The notes: a model not told the origin generated them from the sequence alone. DNA of 64,000 nt from Phycisphaerae bacterium (GCA_963675765.1 OY776568.1:347558-411557); one strand, 5' to 3'. Shown: positions 4,618 through 17,351, numbered from the stretch's first letter. A program made the numbers and translations.

Positions 4618-5013
4618 TCAGTATCGCCACGGTCGCCAGATCCTTTCCAGTTCTTCGATACTGTAACCCCTACCGCACTCTGGGCACTTTCCCTGGTCAG
4701 GCAGCCCGCTAAGCAAGTACCCGCACTGCGGACAAACTCGATACTCATCATCAGCCACACGCGCAACAAACTTACGCCTCGCCTTATCATCTAACACGAT
4801 ATGGAGGAACACGAAAACGAATGTAATAACACATAACACCAACCCAATGGCGTCTGAAAACCTCGGCGATGAAGGTTCCAGACCGAACAGAAAGATCGCG
4901 CCGATAACACCCAAACCCGCAGTTGCTATCCATGCAACAGCCAAACGTCGCCTGCGCCAAAACGGTTTTAGTACTACCTGCCCCCTGATGTTCTTGTCGC
5001 TTGGGTCCGGCAT
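4618..5013 (-). CDS. 2-TM membrane protein with C-terminal zinc ribbon
   Basis: Two TM helices followed by CPQCGYLLSGLPDQGKCPECG. Confidence 0.8.
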   Translation of the reverse strand: MPDPSDKNIRGQVVLKPFWRRRRLAVAWIATAGLGVIGAIFLFGLEPSSPRFSDAIGLVLCVITFVFVFLHIVLDDKARRKFVARVADDEYRVCPQCGYLLSGLPDQGKCPECGRGYSIEELERIWRPWRY

Positions 5014-5042
5014 GAGCGTTGACCTTTCTTGATCACTTGTAC

Positions 5043-5136
5043 TATAGCGTCACTAATCCAAGTGTAGCGTCAAACACCCGAAACCTACCGGAGAAAACAG
5101 GCATGCAGCTGCTACACTCGGATAGACCTTGCTCTA
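5043..5136 (+). mobile_element. 94-bp MITE copy 1 (IS630-related)
   Basis: Runs TATAGC...GCTCTA with 26-bp imperfect TIRs (TATAGCGTCACTAATCCAAGTGTAGC / revcomp TAGAGCAAGGTCTATCCGAGTGTAGC). It aligns with copies at 17414, 46489, 46710, 58725 and 59483. Confidence 0.75.
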
Positions 5137-5308
5137 GCCGCCAGTGTAACAATGTTCCCTACCCGATTCACCCAAGTGGTTATTCAGCCGTCGCCGTGCA
5201 GCCGCAGGTCACCGTGGAGAAACTGGCAACGTACGGAATTCCAGCCCCCACTCCTTCCCGTCTTCTGCTTCCGCCTTGACCAACATTCATGCGCTGCCAC
5301 GAAAGAAA

Positions 5309-5348
5309 AACCCACCTTGCTCGCAAGTCTGGACGAGCAAGGTGGGTT
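5309..5348. repeat. REP-like or terminator hairpin, copy 1 of the CCCRCCTTG...CAAGGYGGG family
   Basis: Perfect 15-bp inverted repeat AACCCACCTTGCTCG / CGAGCAAGGTGGGTT with a 10-nt loop, followed by a T-tract on the minus strand. Confidence 0.7.
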
Positions 5349-13195: not shown

Positions 13196-14224
13196 TCACC
13201 AACCCCACAACACTGCCCGCCACTCGCCCTTCTCTCGGAAGAAGAACAGCTCTGCATGCCTTAGACAACAACCTGACGCAGCCGCACTTGTCTGACCACC
13301 TTTCGGCCCCACATAGAGCAAGCATCCTCCAATCGTGCCACCATCCCGGCCACCCAGACGAACTACCCTTCGCCCAACCTGAAAAACAATGTCGTTTTCC
13401 GAACAGGCTTGCACCGCGTAGGCCGAATCCGCCATCAGCTGCCGAGCACGCTTAACCAACCCCGCCACCGAACCAACAGGACTCGTCACTCCTCCCCTCT
13501 TGCCTTCTTCCCAATCCACAAACAAAACGCCCAACTTGTCCAAGTCCTTGCGTTTGTACGCCGCCACTATCTCGCCATATACGCCCAGGATTGCCTTCGT
13601 GTCAGCTTCACACAACTGCGCAACAGCGACTCCCCCTACATCTTGACCATCCTCTGGCCCCTGAAAATCGCTTCGCAACCACCGACCTCTCTTCTCAATA
13701 CTGGCATCGAAGCAAAAACCGGCCGTATACTCCCCTGGCCACTTGCTCGGTACCATTGCTTTGCCGACAACTTTCCCCTCAGATAAAATCAACTCTCCCT
13801 CGTCCTGGAATACGCCACCCAGAACCTCTTTCGATTGTCCCGGTACGCCTCGCCACACGACAACTTGGCACTCCGCCTCCTTCTCACTCCGCTCCGTACG
13901 CCGAGCCTTGATACGCACTTGGTTCATTCCATCAACGAAGAAGGGAGGAATCGCCACATTCTCTGCGAACACTCTCAACTCCACTTCCAGGTCAGTGTCT
14001 CCAGACGACGTCGGTTCCACGCTTCCCAGTCGCACGCTCGGAAGCCGGCCACTTTCGAAGAACGCCGGTTCGCCGTTAACCCACAACTCGATCTCCCATA
14101 ACCCAATCGGTGACGCCACGTAATAACCGATATCGCCCCCTTGTGAATCTGCCTCGCCGCAACCGGAACACAACATCGTCAAGCCCAAACCAAGAACAAT
14201 CGGCCTAAGAACATATGCCCACAT
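13196..14224 (-). CDS. Putative lipoprotein, candidate immunity for tip C
   Basis: MWAYVLRPIVLGLGLTMLCSGC lipobox-like signal; first gene downstream of cassette C. Confidence 0.7.
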   Translation of the reverse strand: MWAYVLRPIVLGLGLTMLCSGCGEADSQGGDIGYYVASPIGLWEIELWVNGEPAFFESGRLPSVRLGSVEPTSSGDTDLEVELRVFAENVAIPPFFVDGMNQVRIKARRTERSEKEAECQVVVWRGVPGQSKEVLGGVFQDEGELILSEGKVVGKAMVPSKWPGEYTAGFCFDASIEKRGRWLRSDFQGPEDGQDVGGVAVAQLCEADTKAILGVYGEIVAAYKRKDLDKLGVLFVDWEEGKRGGVTSPVGSVAGLVKRARQLMADSAYAVQACSENDIVFQVGRRVVRLGGRDGGTIGGCLLYVGPKGGQTSAAASGCCLRHAELFFFREKGEWRAVLWGW

Positions 14225-14286
14225 GGTCTTTTCTCCAATAACGCTCAGGGGGAAACACACCCATCACCAAAACCCTATAGCTCGAT

Positions 14287-16543
14287 TTACGGAACGCACA
14301 GATCCTGCCAATCAACTGTGTCCGGCGTTTTAGGCGGACCGCATGTTTGCAGTCCATGGTTAGATTCCAAGTACTCCTTTGCTGCTCTCACTAGCCTCTC
14401 GTGATACTGTTCCAGCGACTCCCCCACTCTTATGGGCGGAACCTTGACCCTAATAGAAGTCTTCAACCCAACCTTGGTGCCGGTTCCCAGTACTACAACG
14501 CCACCAGACGTGTCAATGTAGACGTCCACGACTATTTCCACTGGCTCGTTTCCGGGCACTTTGTCCGGAGAAGGGGATGGCGAAGCTGGGGGTGCTGGAG
14601 GAGTCACATTGATCCTCGGCGGTGGCCCAGCGCACAACCCACTCGGATCAATCCGACTAACCGGATTATTCCCACAATAGCCATACACATTCAACCCACC
14701 ACGAATCCCAATCGGATCCCGCTGCAGGAATCGCCCGGTCGACGGATCGTAGTACCGTGCTCCCGTATGCATAAACGGAAAACCATCAGTAGCACTACGA
14801 CCCAGAAGGTTGTCCGGCACGCCGTCGCCGCGATAGGTTGTTCCGCCATCACCGGAATCGTAATCGTGCTCCTCATAGCCGTGAGCACCCACATAACCAT
14901 ACCGACTGGCCACCCCGCTGTCCAAAGTGACGATCTCACCGAACGCCGTCCGCACCGAAACCAGCGAACTGGTCACCGTGCCGCCCGTGTCCGTCTTGAA
15001 CCACGTCGAACCCAGCAGGTCCGTGTGCAGATAGCTCACCGTTCGCGGAGTAGTACCCAAATCGATCTCGGCCACTCCCGGCAAATAGGCAAACAGCTCA
15101 TCCGGATCATCATCCGGCTCGCGATAATCCACAGCCGGGGCGTTACCAATGTAATCGGTAAACGTCCTATCAGCCCCACCACTCGCCGGAGTAAGGCCAT
15201 CGTCCAACTCGACATCTGAGATCCGCTGCCGAGCACTAAGGTAACTGAACCTGCGCCCCCACTTGCGCTCGTACCCATCCTGCGGGTAAACCGTATCGCC
15301 GCAGAACTCGCTATTGCAGAACGCTCCCATGATCAGGAATGGATGCACTTCACTTCCGTCGGCATCGACGAATCCGTTCTTCGTAGGATCGCCGCCCTGG
15401 TTCAACACTAGCAGCAGGTGATTCTCCTCGCCGCTCTCCGTACTATCCGCGTCGTCCGGATCACCTGCCAGCCAACCATCGACCACATAGCCGTTCGGCA
15501 TCGGAGTAAGACCTTCCGGCCACCAGGAAAACTGCCAACCCAGTGCATCGCCTGCAGGATCAGCCCACTTCCAGCAATACGCAGGATTGCTGTTGCATGG
15601 GTAGTTGGGATCATTGAAGAAGTTGCCGCTGCTCTCCTGATAGCCACCGACCCAGTATGATATCTCCGTATCATCCTGCGGCCGGAAGGCCTCTACGAAC
15701 CAATCCAAATCAGACTGATCTTCGATCTGCGCTAATCCATAAAGCTCGTCATCGCTACTGTACGTAGTATCAATGTAGCTCTGGGCCCCGCTCCACGTCC
15801 TCGCCTCTGCCGGATCGGAAACCGCTAAAATCCCAACAACACCGTTGAATGACGAACGCGTCATGTAGCGCCAATCGTCCACCCACTCGTCGTTCGACAC
15901 TACGCGCACTCTACCCATGGCGTCATAATCCAGACGAGTGCCCTTGTAGCCCACTTCCTCGCTACTTTGAGTGATAATGCGATCGATGTTGCCGTATGCG
16001 TTGTAGTAATACCACGTCGTCTCCACTATGGGATCACCGCCACCAGGACGCGGTTTGCTACTCACGTAGTACATCAAACGGTTGTTGTTGCTGCCGTACT
16101 TCTCCACACCGTCGACCGGGTTACTGTTCTCGTCGACCGTATCGACGTCGTAGTAGTAGGCCACGCTCTCCGTCTGCACGCCATTCTGCTGCACTACCTT
16201 ACTCTTGCGATTCCCGCCATTATCGTAGGTGTAGCTTATGTCGTAGATGGCCGTCGCCTGCCCATCAATCAAACGCTGCTCCCGAGTAAGACGGTTGCGA
16301 TTGTCATACTCGAACAGAGTGTGATACAGATTGCTGTCCAGGCCACTATCCGAAATCTGCGTGATCCGACCACCGTCATCATAGAGATAGGTCAGCACCT
16401 GAGGAGTGCCGTCACCTGTATCATGGGTAATCGTAAACACCCGACCGTCCGTGTAGTAATTGTAATCCACTGTCGTCCCGTTGCCATGTGTGATCACATC
16501 AACCTGACCGATAGTGGTGTACGTGTAACTTGCCTGGGCATCG
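14287..16543 (-). CDS. Rhs cassette C (N-truncated, with lectin-like domain, Pro-rich tip C)
   Basis: Near-identical to cassette A from DAQASYTY (breakpoint 16543) to RIDPxG, then an unrelated tip. The open frame extends to 16620. Confidence 0.92.
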
Positions 16544-16772
16544 ACGCCAGCCCATTGCGTCAGAACGATGATCCGCAACTGCAACCTTTTGACCTCAGTA
16601 TCGGAAGTAGCTATTGCCAAGAACGACTCGGAGGGTTATTAACGCAATGCAGCGGCAAGACGGCTCAATCATGACAAAGATCGGTAGCGCCCGCAGTACT
16701 GGCATCCCGATCGAGACTCGTTCCGTGACCTGAGTCAGGCGAGGGAATCGGATTATCTCTGGGTGGGAGTGC

Positions 16773-17351
16773 ATGGTGATGCTATCAAAAGCACTCGAAT
16801 GCTTGCGGAGGCAGCTCACGAAACCCCTGTTTAGGACTCGGTTTATTCCGGATGACGCCTCCGTCGACCCAACCCTTCTCCCCGAAGACGAGTTCCCCGT
16901 ACATTGCGTCAAGTGCCGCTACGCCTTACGGGGATTAGACGATGGGCGATGCCCCGAGTGCGGAACGCCATTCGAACGAGGACGATTACTCGTCCGTCAA
17001 TACGTTCACGATTGGAGGGGGGCCAAGTGGCGACAATCATCGGCAGCGCGCTGGTCATGCCGTTTTGCCCTGATTGGATTAGCCCTCCCAATCCTGTCAG
17101 GGGTCGGCATGGCATGCGTCATGTGTTATTTGTGTCCCAATGATCGAGCAACCCGGCCAACTACAGCACAAGTTGATTTTGGCGTCTGCATTGCCTACTG
17201 CCTGATCGGGGCAGCGTTCGTCGGCCTCGCTTTGCAGGCGATCTCAATCGTCATAACTACGTATACTTCTCCGCGCAACGCAAGGAGGCAGCGGCGATTT
17301 GTGATCGACGCCATGCGCGGTCAAGGTTGTTGCCACAGCATACGAAAGTAG
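16773..17351 (+). CDS. Membrane protein with N-terminal zinc ribbon and 2 TM; paralog of 10510..11091
   Basis: VDPTLLPEDEFPVHCVKCRYALRGLDDGRCPECG followed by two TM helices. Confidence 0.82.
   Translation: MVMLSKALECLRRQLTKPLFRTRFIPDDASVDPTLLPEDEFPVHCVKCRYALRGLDDGRCPECGTPFERGRLLVRQYVHDWRGAKWRQSSAARWSCRFALIGLALPILSGVGMACVMCYLCPNDRATRPTTAQVDFGVCIAYCLIGAAFVGLALQAISIVITTYTSPRNARRQRRFVIDAMRGQGCCHSIRK

Follow-up and report, generated by a model that had tools for sequence, protein, structure and literature searches.

A stretch of 64,000 nucleotides from a Phycisphaerae genome (the window) carries six small genes, A to F, whose products combine a predicted zinc ribbon with membrane helices, most of them packed among Rhs toxin genes. 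The question raised by this locus is whether the ribbon genes take part in immunity to the Rhs toxins or merely lie beside them. The preliminary description of the window had proposed that a conserved metal-binding module is shuffled onto variable membrane domains, perhaps as immunity to membrane-acting toxins or as adaptors that recruit a protease, and had suggested an HMM and copy census, a test of enrichment near Rhs genes and a check for MITE association.

Ribbon genes of the window

The features of the window are shown in Table 1. All six ORFs exist as described, and 6/6 carry the motif CxxC-x-Y-x-L-x(5-9)-CPECG. Two hydrophobic helices are predicted for each protein by TM prediction. The translations bear out that the ribbon is C-terminal in four proteins (A, B, C, and F) and N-terminal in two (D and E). 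The Rhs island is real as well. Four Rhs core ends (TIGR03696) were identified on the minus strand at about 7980, 11879, 14634, and 18885, with scores of 65-70 bits (cut-off 32.5). Each core end is followed by a variable tip, and the four tips are mutually unrelated when compared with one another. Genes A to E lie inside this island and F lies outside, in agreement with the count of five in six given before. The five island copies fall within 12.7 kb where 0.14 would be expected (Poisson P = 4e-7), and P is about 2e-4 after correction for all windows. The TM parts had been called unrelated, which fails for two of the pairs: a full-length comparison of D and E gives 37% identity, and A and B have an extended juxtamembrane and tail motif in common that places them in one subfamily.

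Table 1 Features of the window, with positions counted from its first nucleotide
Feature	Position	Strand	Description	Sequence
ZnR-A	4618-5013	minus	131 aa, 2 TM, C-terminal ribbon then Y-x6-W tail	CPQCGYLLSGLPDQGKCPECG
ZnR-B	5443-5958	minus	171 aa, GTG start, 2 TM, C-terminal ribbon, tail subfamily as A	CLNCGYDLWNLPEEHVCPECG
ZnR-C	6166-6738	minus	190 aa, 2 TM, C-terminal ribbon and extra CxxC pairs	CGKCGYSLVGVSGRARCPECG
ZnR-D	10510-11091	plus	193 aa, conserved N-terminal cytoplasmic domain, ribbon, 2 TM	CSKCDYLLRGLADGKCPECG
ZnR-E	16773-17351	plus	192 aa, N-terminal ribbon, 2 TM, paralogue of D	CVKCRYALRGLDDGRCPECG
ZnR-F	58888-59448	plus	186 aa, 2 TM, C-terminal ribbon; outside island, adjoins MITE copy	CGHCSYELRGLTKPRCPECG
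4-TM gene without ribbon	3961-4425	minus	154 aa; end of immunity run	
Terminator-like hairpin, strong	5309-5348	minus	16 bp stem then T run, between B and A	
Rhs-core relic	6056-6106	minus	17 codons, between C and B	GVAKIDLGTTRRTVTFL
3-TM gene without ribbon	7192-7530	minus	112 aa; start 4 nt past Rhs stop	
Rhs/YD-repeat fragment	7534-10050	minus	838 aa; core end ~7980, then 148-aa tip with Gly/Ala-rich hydrophobic stretch	
Orphan Rhs C-terminal module	11583-12596	minus	98-aa hydrophobic, TM-like tip	
Rhs/YD-repeat fragment	14287-16620	minus	777 aa, 115-aa tip	
Orphan Rhs C-terminal module	18529-19572	minus	hydrophobic tip; TPR gene 17928-18503 next	

The ribbon family

The ribbon spans roughly 35 residues and has the fuller signature CxxC-G-Y-x-L-x-G-x4-6-CPECG. 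An alignment of 39 ribbons exhibits no change at the four cysteines. The codons for the conserved Cys, Pro, Glu, and Gly differ freely at synonymous sites, so the conservation acts on the protein and is not that of a DNA repeat. The AF2 model of E exhibits the ribbon and a 2-TM hairpin (pLDDT 82.7), with short strands at residues 43-68 (block pLDDT 91-94). Sequence and model together agree with a two-knuckle Cys4 zinc-ribbon fold, with CxxC/CPxC knuckles at ribbon spacing and a beta-hairpin, and the ribbon may bind zinc. The proteins that carry the ribbon have 1-8 TM helices and bear it at the N-terminus, at the C-terminus or in a central loop, and one copy forms a fusion with a PrsW protease domain (PF13367, 49 bits). 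This supports the module shuffling that had been proposed. It sits on the K/R-rich side in 34/45 proteins. The ribbon is predicted to be cytoplasmic and joined to fast-diverging membrane helices or periplasmic parts.

The ribbon resembles DZR (PF12773), DZR_2 (PF18912), Zn_Ribbon_1 (PF13240), and rubredoxin-like knuckles in its two CxxC knuckles 9-14 residues apart and in the short beta strands of the AF2 model; such generic ribbons also often lie beside TM helices in uncharacterised bacterial proteins. However, the family has its own G-Y-x-L-x-G and CPECG signature, and its Pfam matches stay below the gathering scores. The six window proteins reach 15-19 bits at best against DZR, Zn_Ribbon_1, and DZR_2 (cut-offs 25-29), and the best score of the larger members against Pfam zinc-ribbon models is 27.1 where the gathering threshold is 27.3. 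No model in the Pfam, NCBIfam or PADLOC libraries that were searched names the family, and no PADLOC anti-phage defence family was matched at E <= 0.01.

A search of the 5.45 Mb genome in six-frame translation gives 49 matches to the strict ribbon pattern and 0 to its reversal, which served as control. The HMM of the ribbon identifies 60 domains genome-wide, followed by a clean score gap. The suggested census yields a large family without a match to a characterised one in Pfam, NCBIfam or PADLOC; the family is expanded as had been claimed, with about 60 ribbons in the genome, but it is not special to this island. Among the relatives, 30/31 have ribbon copies (10-150 per genome). The copy number follows genome size (rho 0.58) more closely than the Rhs count, with which the correlation is weak (rho 0.43). 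The family was found in 6/121 genomes of a phylum sample. It is nearly confined to one class and is expanded across the order of the source genome and part of that class, with relatives named Phycisphaerae.

It is very improbable that the ribbon ORFs have no cellular function and are only carried along by MITE-like or recombining elements, or are debris of pseudogenes from the Rhs island. Such an origin is suggested by an 80-nt DNA tail directly after CPECG that is common to five or six copies, by a truncated chimeric copy at genome 4587567 and by a second, identical copy of E at genome 3624540-3625118 within a 4.8 kb duplicated segment. The suggested check for MITEs gave a modest genome-wide enrichment (9 copies at <=1 kb vs 2.7 expected), which also speaks for such an origin. 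The five island copies, however, lie >24 kb from the tested MITE family, and m1, the sequence that flanks F, is present only once in the genome. The ORFs of the window are moreover open in 6/6 cases, the motif is under selection at the protein level while synonymous sites are free, and a metagenome/public representative library holds 78,817 ribbon-family clusters, counted without taxonomic assignment.

Association of ribbon genes with Rhs tips

The source genome has 41 Rhs core ends. Twelve ribbons lie <=2 kb from an Rhs ORF end where 1.5 are expected, and 17/60 lie <=5 kb from an Rhs end where 2.7 are expected, with a maximum of 9 in 5000 randomisations. The enrichment test suggested earlier thus came out positive. 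At genome 1114838, 1710585, 3630782, and 4082148 a ribbon ORF begins right where the Rhs tip ORF stops, and so does a weak-ribbon ORF at genome 169136. In the relatives, 333 kb around Rhs ends contain 23 ribbons (0.069/kb vs 0.009/kb genome-wide; Poisson P = 4e-13), and 22/23 share the strand of the Rhs gene. The immunity slot, directly behind the tip, is occupied by a ribbon gene for 11-12/104 tips in the relatives (binomial P = 2e-9). When this genome and 30 relatives are combined, 16-19/145 Rhs tips are directly followed by a same-strand ribbon-membrane gene, where about 1% is expected. In 10 relatives a ribbon gene occupies the slot or lies no more than about 0.7 kb past the Rhs stop, and at loci L065 and L066 the Rhs gene in front of the slot is full-length (open frames 2840 and 2210 aa).

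These counts bear on the alternative that the ribbon is a generic, lineage-specific module which commonly caps many unrelated membrane proteins of Phycisphaerae on the cytoplasmic side, their roles being a mixture of housekeeping and regulation. The nearness to Rhs would then come merely from the gathering of small, fast-evolving accessory genes in variable regions, and A to E would have no toxin role. This is a possibility that we take seriously but consider doubtful. About two thirds of the copies (37/60) lie >20 kb from any Rhs core, and the homologues P0009, P0010, P0005, P0169, P0171, and P0038 have no Rhs neighbour. Some copies lie behind housekeeping genes: three ORFs upstream of ribbon copies resemble AcrB, FtsY, and ClpC, as judged only by eye, and neighbours of the FHA, rhomboid, and saccharopine dehydrogenase type were matched by Pfam. 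Tandem ribbon-gene arrays without Rhs were also found. A generic cap would further agree with the ribbons on 8-TM proteins and on the PrsW protease, with the modest MITE enrichment and with the ribbon being carried by about 6.6% of ORFs of 100-400 aa with >=2 TM helices. However, regional bias predicts neither the strand specificity of the slot genes nor their start at the Rhs stop codon. Of the slot genes of membrane type, 25% carry the ribbon, compared with about 6.6% of the TM ORFs in the whole genome, and the pattern recurs in 10 relatives, full-length Rhs genes included.

We consider it somewhat more probable than not that a subset of the ribbon family was recruited as Rhs immunity proteins, with A, B, and probably C as orphan immunity genes and D and E as a separate case. 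The immunity role that had been proposed is supported for a sizeable subset, given the slot behind the tips and the relatives and context of A to C, and is not supported for the family as a whole, given the copies far from Rhs. The proposed action against membrane-acting toxins is likewise limited. Ribbon genes follow 7/49 hydrophobic tips and 12/96 soluble tips (Fisher p = 0.8), which is no overall preference for hydrophobic tips among the 145; the A/B subfamily is the only part for which the proposal stands. As to whether immunity type co-varies with tip type, the A/B subfamily speaks for it, with 4/4 slot members behind hydrophobic Gly-rich tips. Against it, the ribbon proteins behind the homologous tips L056 and L057 (42% identical) are alike only in the ribbon, and the same is true behind the homologous tips at 169744 in the source genome and at L066.

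Genes A, B, and C

The three ribbon genes that had been placed in a run at the 3' end of the island do lie there, between the genes at 7192-7530 and 3961-4425, and the run is one of immunity-type genes. The first of these flanking genes is likely the cognate immunity gene of the tip at 7534-7980. The second is homologous (31% over 116 aa) to the immunity-slot gene of the last orphan tip of island 2. The Rhs-core relic between C and B was found by blastn (tblastn E = 9e-4) and lies 98 nt upstream of B; it is what is left of a decayed orphan Rhs module.

The best extended matches of A are the immunity-slot genes L058_+_883 and L060_+_6810, and no close homologue of A was found among 5.8 billion proteins. 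The nearest relatives of A and B are the immunity-slot genes L058, L060, L083, and P0167/L131, and 4/4 lie behind hydrophobic Gly-rich tips of YD-repeat proteins, which also speaks against a generic module. C has its longest similarity (29% over 133 aa) to L056_+_848, which occupies an immunity slot in another genus. One point counts against immunity: A, B, and C are not directly behind an intact tip but are the third to fifth genes after it, and the slot itself is held by the ribbon-less gene at 7192-7530. We read A, B, and probably C as candidate orphan immunity genes, which may have been left in the 3' immunity run once their toxin modules decayed. Their variable membrane part would intercept the incoming toxin at or in the inner membrane, and the toxin met by the A/B subfamily may be a glycine-rich membrane-inserting tip.

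Genes D and E

Both D and E are on the strand opposite to the Rhs genes, which counts against an immunity role, and D is convergent with the orphan Rhs tip at 11583-12596. Orthologues of the D/E type at 42 Phycisphaerae loci are found in housekeeping contexts with no Rhs nearby, as a generic module would predict. Conservation within the subfamily lies in the cytoplasmic N-terminal domain. The two genes form a conserved subfamily of their own, whose presence in the island is local.

Comparison with known systems

The slot genes resemble the immunity genes of polymorphic toxins, as presented in a 2012 account (PMC3482391), in several ways. The gene is the same-strand neighbour immediately behind a variable C-terminal toxin tip, immunity genes and orphan tips pile up downstream of the main gene with decayed core fragments between them, and immunity proteins diverge fast and are often singletons. 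Unlike in that system, one conserved cytoplasmic zinc ribbon is common here to slot proteins behind mutually unrelated tips, and most members of the family are not toxin-linked. A term search of that account gave no ribbon-plus-TM immunity family, and Pfam has none either.

Immunity proteins of pore-forming colicins are small polytopic proteins of the inner membrane with 3-4 TM helices, and CdzI is a comparable membrane immunity protein. They are thought to block the membrane-inserting toxin by helix-helix contact. This would agree with the slot members of the A/B subfamily, which follow Gly-rich hydrophobic tips and whose role would be analogous. We know of no zinc ribbon in immunity proteins of the colicin and CdzI type, and Pfam and NCBIfam exhibit no sequence relation of the window proteins to them.

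LapB (YciM), to whose rubredoxin domain the preliminary description had drawn a loose analogy, is likewise anchored in the membrane and also has a metal site of four cysteines in the cytoplasm, which is predicted here for the ribbon proteins. A LapB-like adaptor has an N-terminal TM helix, TPRs, and a C-terminal rubredoxin domain. The ribbon proteins differ in having no TPR domain; the six window proteins gave no TPR or LapB hits in Pfam or NCBIfam, and no structural match to the LapB rubredoxin domain was found.

Possible roles of the ribbon

In the immunity reading, the ribbon would be a constant cytoplasmic module that anchors fold or topology or to which a shared partner docks. The adaptor proposal goes further: the ribbon would dock a membrane-associated protease (PrsW-type, rhomboid or FtsH-like) to which the variable membrane part hands over the clients it binds, toxins among them, to be degraded; alternatively, the ribbon proteins would be regulated substrates themselves. 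The fusion to PrsW and the two ribbon genes that each follow an FHA membrane protein, one of these with a rhomboid domain, point in this direction, but they are three anecdotal loci among about 60, and ribbon genes have no protease gene as a regular neighbour. The strong conservation of the non-cysteine ribbon residues (Y, L, G, P, and E) across diverging paralogues suggests a shared binding surface, and the cytoplasmic domain is the conserved part in the D/E subfamily. With no structural or sequence match to LapB or known adaptors, we regard this role as unlikely.

An equally speculative and improbable extension of the immunity reading is that the ribbon is the universal docking handle of a modular immunity repertoire, with dozens to 150 membrane "receptors" per genome and one shared partner. 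The differing membrane or periplasmic parts of the receptors would recognise the toxins, the common cytoplasmic ribbon would bind the partner, for example an intramembrane or AAA+ protease, and captured toxins would enter a common disposal pathway. If true, this would account for one motif being kept across proteins behind unrelated toxins, and interbacterial immunity would gain a new organising principle.

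Ribbon proteins encoded in the window

The six window genes that encode zinc-ribbon membrane proteins (A-F) are all open and contain the motif CxxC-x-Y-x-L-x(6-8)-CPECG, as the preliminary description had stated. Two hydrophobic helices were predicted in each protein. The coordinates of these genes, of the run that includes A, B, and C, and of example Rhs loci elsewhere in the genome (C1) are shown in the table.

Coordinates of the ribbon genes, of the gene run behind the Rhs fragment, and of example Rhs loci
Feature	Coordinates	Strand	Position in run (minus-strand order)	Remarks
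Rhs fragment	window 7534-10050	minus	1st	
Ribbonless gene	window 7192-7530	minus	2nd	112 aa, 3 TM, no ribbon; start 4 nt past Rhs stop
Doubtful ORF	window 6820-7152	minus	3rd	
C	window 6166-6738	minus	4th	ribbon C-terminal
Rhs core relic	window 6106-6056	minus	5th	17 codons
B	window 5443-5958	minus	6th	ribbon C-terminal
Hairpin terminator	window 5348-5309	minus	7th	strong
A	window 4618-5013	minus	8th	ribbon C-terminal
4-TM protein gene	window 3961-4425	minus	9th	
D	window 10510-11091	plus		ribbon N-terminal
E	window 16773-17351	plus		ribbon N-terminal
F	window 58888-59448	plus		ribbon C-terminal
Rhs locus	C1 997106-1002886			TIGR03696
Rhs locus	C1 1115394-1128693			TIGR03696
Rhs locus	C1 1708318-1714885			TIGR03696
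Rhs locus	C1 2904027-2910147			TIGR03696
Rhs locus	C1 3622889-3631899			TIGR03696
Rhs locus	C1 4592120-4603069			TIGR03696

None of the six proteins reached a model threshold in Pfam, NCBIfam, or PADLOC, where only generic ribbon families scored (12-19 bits). The search of PDB sequences with the ribbon profile returned only generic ribbons and partial 'CPECGKSF' matches to designed C2H2 fingers. No description of the ribbon family was found in the searched literature on zinc ribbons in Planctomycetes or on immunity, zinc ribbons, and Rhs. The ribbon module is undescribed, and the family has no name in Pfam or NCBIfam. Where the ribbon has its invariant Cys, Pro, Glu, and Gly residues, codon choice is free; selection on the ribbon thus acts at the protein level, and the free synonymous sites also rule out that the motif is a DNA repeat. 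In 34 of 45 proteins, the ribbon is located on the side of the membrane that is richer in K/R, a placement that fits a predicted cytoplasmic, reduced, metal-binding domain.

Size and distribution of the ribbon family

The genome is a single contig of 5.45 Mb, and its six-frame translation contains the strict pattern 49 times, compared with 0 times for the reversed control. The genome-wide census proposed in the preliminary description was carried out with an HMM built from the ribbons of this genome that match the strict pattern. It identified 60 ribbon domains at E <= 1.5e-5, after which the next match follows only at 8e-4. The ribbon carriers have 1-8 predicted TM helices, and the ribbon is found at either end or in a central loop.

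The ribbon is present in 29 of 30 relatives from the same family or order, with 10-150 copies each. Across an even phylum sample of 121 genomes, it is limited to this genome, three others of its class (22-37 copies), and two singletons. The related loci all belong to Phycisphaerae, Phycisphaerales, or Planctomycetota MAGs. The profile search of 1.84 billion cluster representatives retrieved 78,817 ribbon proteins at E <= 1e-3, and the best matches among them have 2-4 ribbons per protein. One family member of 289 aa (C1:5304815-5305700, plus) is a PrsW fusion with the intramembrane metalloprotease domain PF13367 (49 bits).

Five ribbon genes (C1 180934, 1114406, 4203026, 4587711, and 4595935) have in common an 80-nt DNA tail right behind the CPECG codons. 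The loci at 1114406 and 4587711 are identical over more than 200 nt downstream, and the copy at C1 4587567 is truncated and chimeric, its N-terminus being D-like. The shared tails and the chimeric copy suggest that recombination may take place at the conserved ribbon motif. Carriage of the ribbon genes by MITEs was rejected: enrichment near MITEs is only modest genome-wide and is absent for the island copies. The 'two direct MITE copies' described at F are unsupported by blastn, since the left-hand element (window 58725-58818) is unique in the genome and fails to align with the right-hand element (window 59483-59577), which is a repeat of ~80-95 nt with 124 genome copies.

Rhs islands of the genome

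The large minus-strand ORFs among A-E encode YD-repeat proteins whose terminal Rhs core motif (YYDPSTGRFLQRDP...DPxG) leads into unrelated tips, which are the variable toxin C-termini beyond the core. TIGR03696 scores 65-70 bits on these core ends. The core motif and the TIGR03696 matches together show that the setting is a genuine Rhs island, in which four core ends are present. The TIGR03696 search of the whole genome identified 41 Rhs core ends in ~15 loci. By planctomycete standards, this Rhs arsenal is very large. Many of the 41 are in tandem orphan arrays, and their tips are mostly unrelated. The window island includes Gly-rich tips at 11583-11879 and 18529-18885. Pfam assigned no family to the Rhs tips, save AMOP (PF03782, 49.6 bits) in one tip outside the window (C1:4082151-4082796, minus) that is directly followed by a ribbon-membrane gene. 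AMOP is a Cys-rich domain that is chiefly known from extracellular proteins of animals.

An inverted duplication of 4.8 kb with 97.9% identity (window 14643-19485 and C1:3622406-3627248) links the window island to a second Rhs island of the same genome. Two transposases flank the second island, one of them IS630-like (3621395-3622398), the other at 3633032-3634567. The border of the window island has a methyl-accepting chemotaxis protein with a chemoreceptor zinc-binding (CZB) domain (window 3-1961, plus). The 278-aa protein encoded at window 2212-3048 (minus) ends in ...CIPEPASVLLLVCGAVVIVRRR, a PEP-CTERM-like sorting signal by eye, and has two paralogues in the genome.

Ribbon genes beside Rhs tips

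Association of the ribbon genes with Rhs genes, as the preliminary description had claimed for the window, was recovered genome-wide. The distance to an Rhs ORF end is at most 2 kb for 12 of the 60 ribbons (1.5 expected) and at most 5 kb for 17 (2.7 expected, maximum of 9 in 5000 randomisations); it exceeds 20 kb for 37. A same-strand ribbon ORF starts right where an Rhs tip ORF stops at genome positions 1114838, 1710585, 3630782, and 4082148, and a weak-ribbon ORF likewise does so at 169136. Two such pairs are tip 3630434-3630779 with gene 3630800-3631483, and tip 1711154 with gene 1710579.

As an independent test set, 84 loci of the relatives (333 kb in total) were used, which surround 124 Rhs core ends. 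These loci contain 23 ribbons, or 0.069 per kb compared with 0.009 per kb genome-wide (Poisson P = 4e-13), and 22 of the ribbons are on the Rhs strand. The slot, the gene position directly after the tip, was taken as occupied where a ribbon gene starts -60 to +150 nt from the Rhs stop. This is the case for 11-12 of the 104 evaluable tips of relatives (binomial P = 2e-9), and some of the occupied slots come after full-length Rhs genes. The first ORF downstream of 145 tips encodes a ribbon with TM helices in 16-19 cases, TM helices only in ~46, and a soluble protein in ~70. By these counts, the ribbon is found on 25% of membrane-type slot genes compared with ~6.6% of TM ORFs genome-wide. About 1/8 of the Rhs immunity-slot genes are marked by the ribbon module, in at least 11 genomes of several genera.

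In the main rival explanation, the ribbon would be a generic module of membrane proteins, and its presence at Rhs loci would be a side effect of clustering in accessory regions. We consider this rather unlikely, as the placement is strand-specific and stop-adjacent in ten relatives, where ribbon genes are in the slot or within ~0.7 kb downstream of the Rhs stop. We lean cautiously towards a lineage-specific cytoplasmic zinc ribbon that is combined with variable membrane or periplasmic parts, where a sizeable subset of the proteins would serve as immunity proteins against Rhs toxins and where A, B, and probably C would be putative orphan immunity genes. The ribbon itself may anchor the topology or the fold, or it may offer a docking site to a shared partner, for example a protease.

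The run of A, B, and C

As read from the sequence, the gene order from the Rhs fragment to the 4-TM protein gene is the anatomy of an orphan immunity run. The ribbonless second gene is likely the cognate immunity gene of the Rhs fragment. The strong hairpin ahead of A predicts that A would have a transcript of its own. The 4-TM protein shares 31% identity with the immunity-slot gene of the second island's last orphan tip. Outside the ribbon, the best matches of A and B are slot genes from other genera (L058_+_883 and L060_+_6810), then L083_+_4014. All five proteins exhibit an R-rich juxtamembrane helix, Y-x-[VI]-C, GLP, and a Y-x6-W tail. The profile search with the alignment of this five-protein A/B subfamily found the homologue P0167 on an independent metagenome contig, where it is placed behind a YD-shell protein whose tip is hydrophobic and Gly-rich, within a unit present three times. 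Hydrophobic Gly-rich tips precede all four slot members of the A/B subfamily (4/4). The whole P0167 locus (L131, ENA ERZ21869602 ctg85834c) consists of at least three head-to-tail copies of a 4 kb unit in which a YD-shell protein of ~570 aa is followed by genes for a ribbon protein (160 aa) and for two more proteins of 260 and 135 aa. Among 5.8 billion proteins, no close homologue of A was found, which is expected of a fast-evolving conflict gene. The longest similarity of C is to another slot gene, L056_+_848.

D and E as a separate subfamily

The TM parts of the six proteins had been described as unrelated, which does not hold for D and E: these share 37% identity along their whole length. 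Their subfamily exhibits a strongly conserved cytoplasmic N-terminal domain of 80 residues and variable helices. Both genes are on the strand opposite to the Rhs genes, and no Rhs core was found close to the homologues at 42 named Phycisphaerae loci (438 kb) and in three metagenome contexts. The other copy of E (genome 3624540) is not independent evidence because it is part of the 4.8 kb duplication. In the AF2 model of E (pLDDT 82.7), a helix at each terminus frames the ribbon and two long TM helices, and Foldseek of this model against PDB returned nothing below E = 0.5. D and E are set apart from A-C, and the immunity reading covers A, B, and probably C.

Extent of the toxin link

The tips that precede ribbon genes are mutually unrelated, and the ribbon proteins behind two pairs of homologous tips are alike in the ribbon only. 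Membrane-acting toxins had been suggested as the targets. Family-wide, a ribbon gene comes next after 7 of 49 hydrophobic tips and 12 of 96 soluble tips (p = 0.8); these equal rates rule out a general preference for hydrophobic tips.

The placement of non-Rhs ribbon genes behind other toxins was also considered and rejected, as their upstream ORFs have no similarity to any Rhs tip. Pfam found FHA, rhomboid, or saccharopine dehydrogenase domains in three of five such ORFs and no match in two, and three more resemble AcrB, FtsY, and ClpC by eye alone. Two tandem pairs are present at C1:2591774-2596400 (plus). The first consists of a zinc-ribbon/FHA membrane protein (513 aa) with a ribbon gene behind it, and the second consists of a zinc-ribbon/FHA/rhomboid protease (620 aa) with, behind it, a ribbon gene paralogous to that of the first pair.

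Significance

To our knowledge, Rhs and polymorphic toxins are well studied in Proteobacteria and scarcely in Planctomycetota. Immunity proteins are usually catalogued as one family per toxin. If the immunity role is true, the motif would offer an inexpensive sequence marker of toxin-immunity loci and of orphan immunity repertoires in this group, and the question would be raised why one and the same cytoplasmic zinc ribbon is kept by immunity proteins against unrelated toxins. Should the immunity role be false, the family would still be among the largest uncharacterised membrane-protein families of the class and merits a family model.
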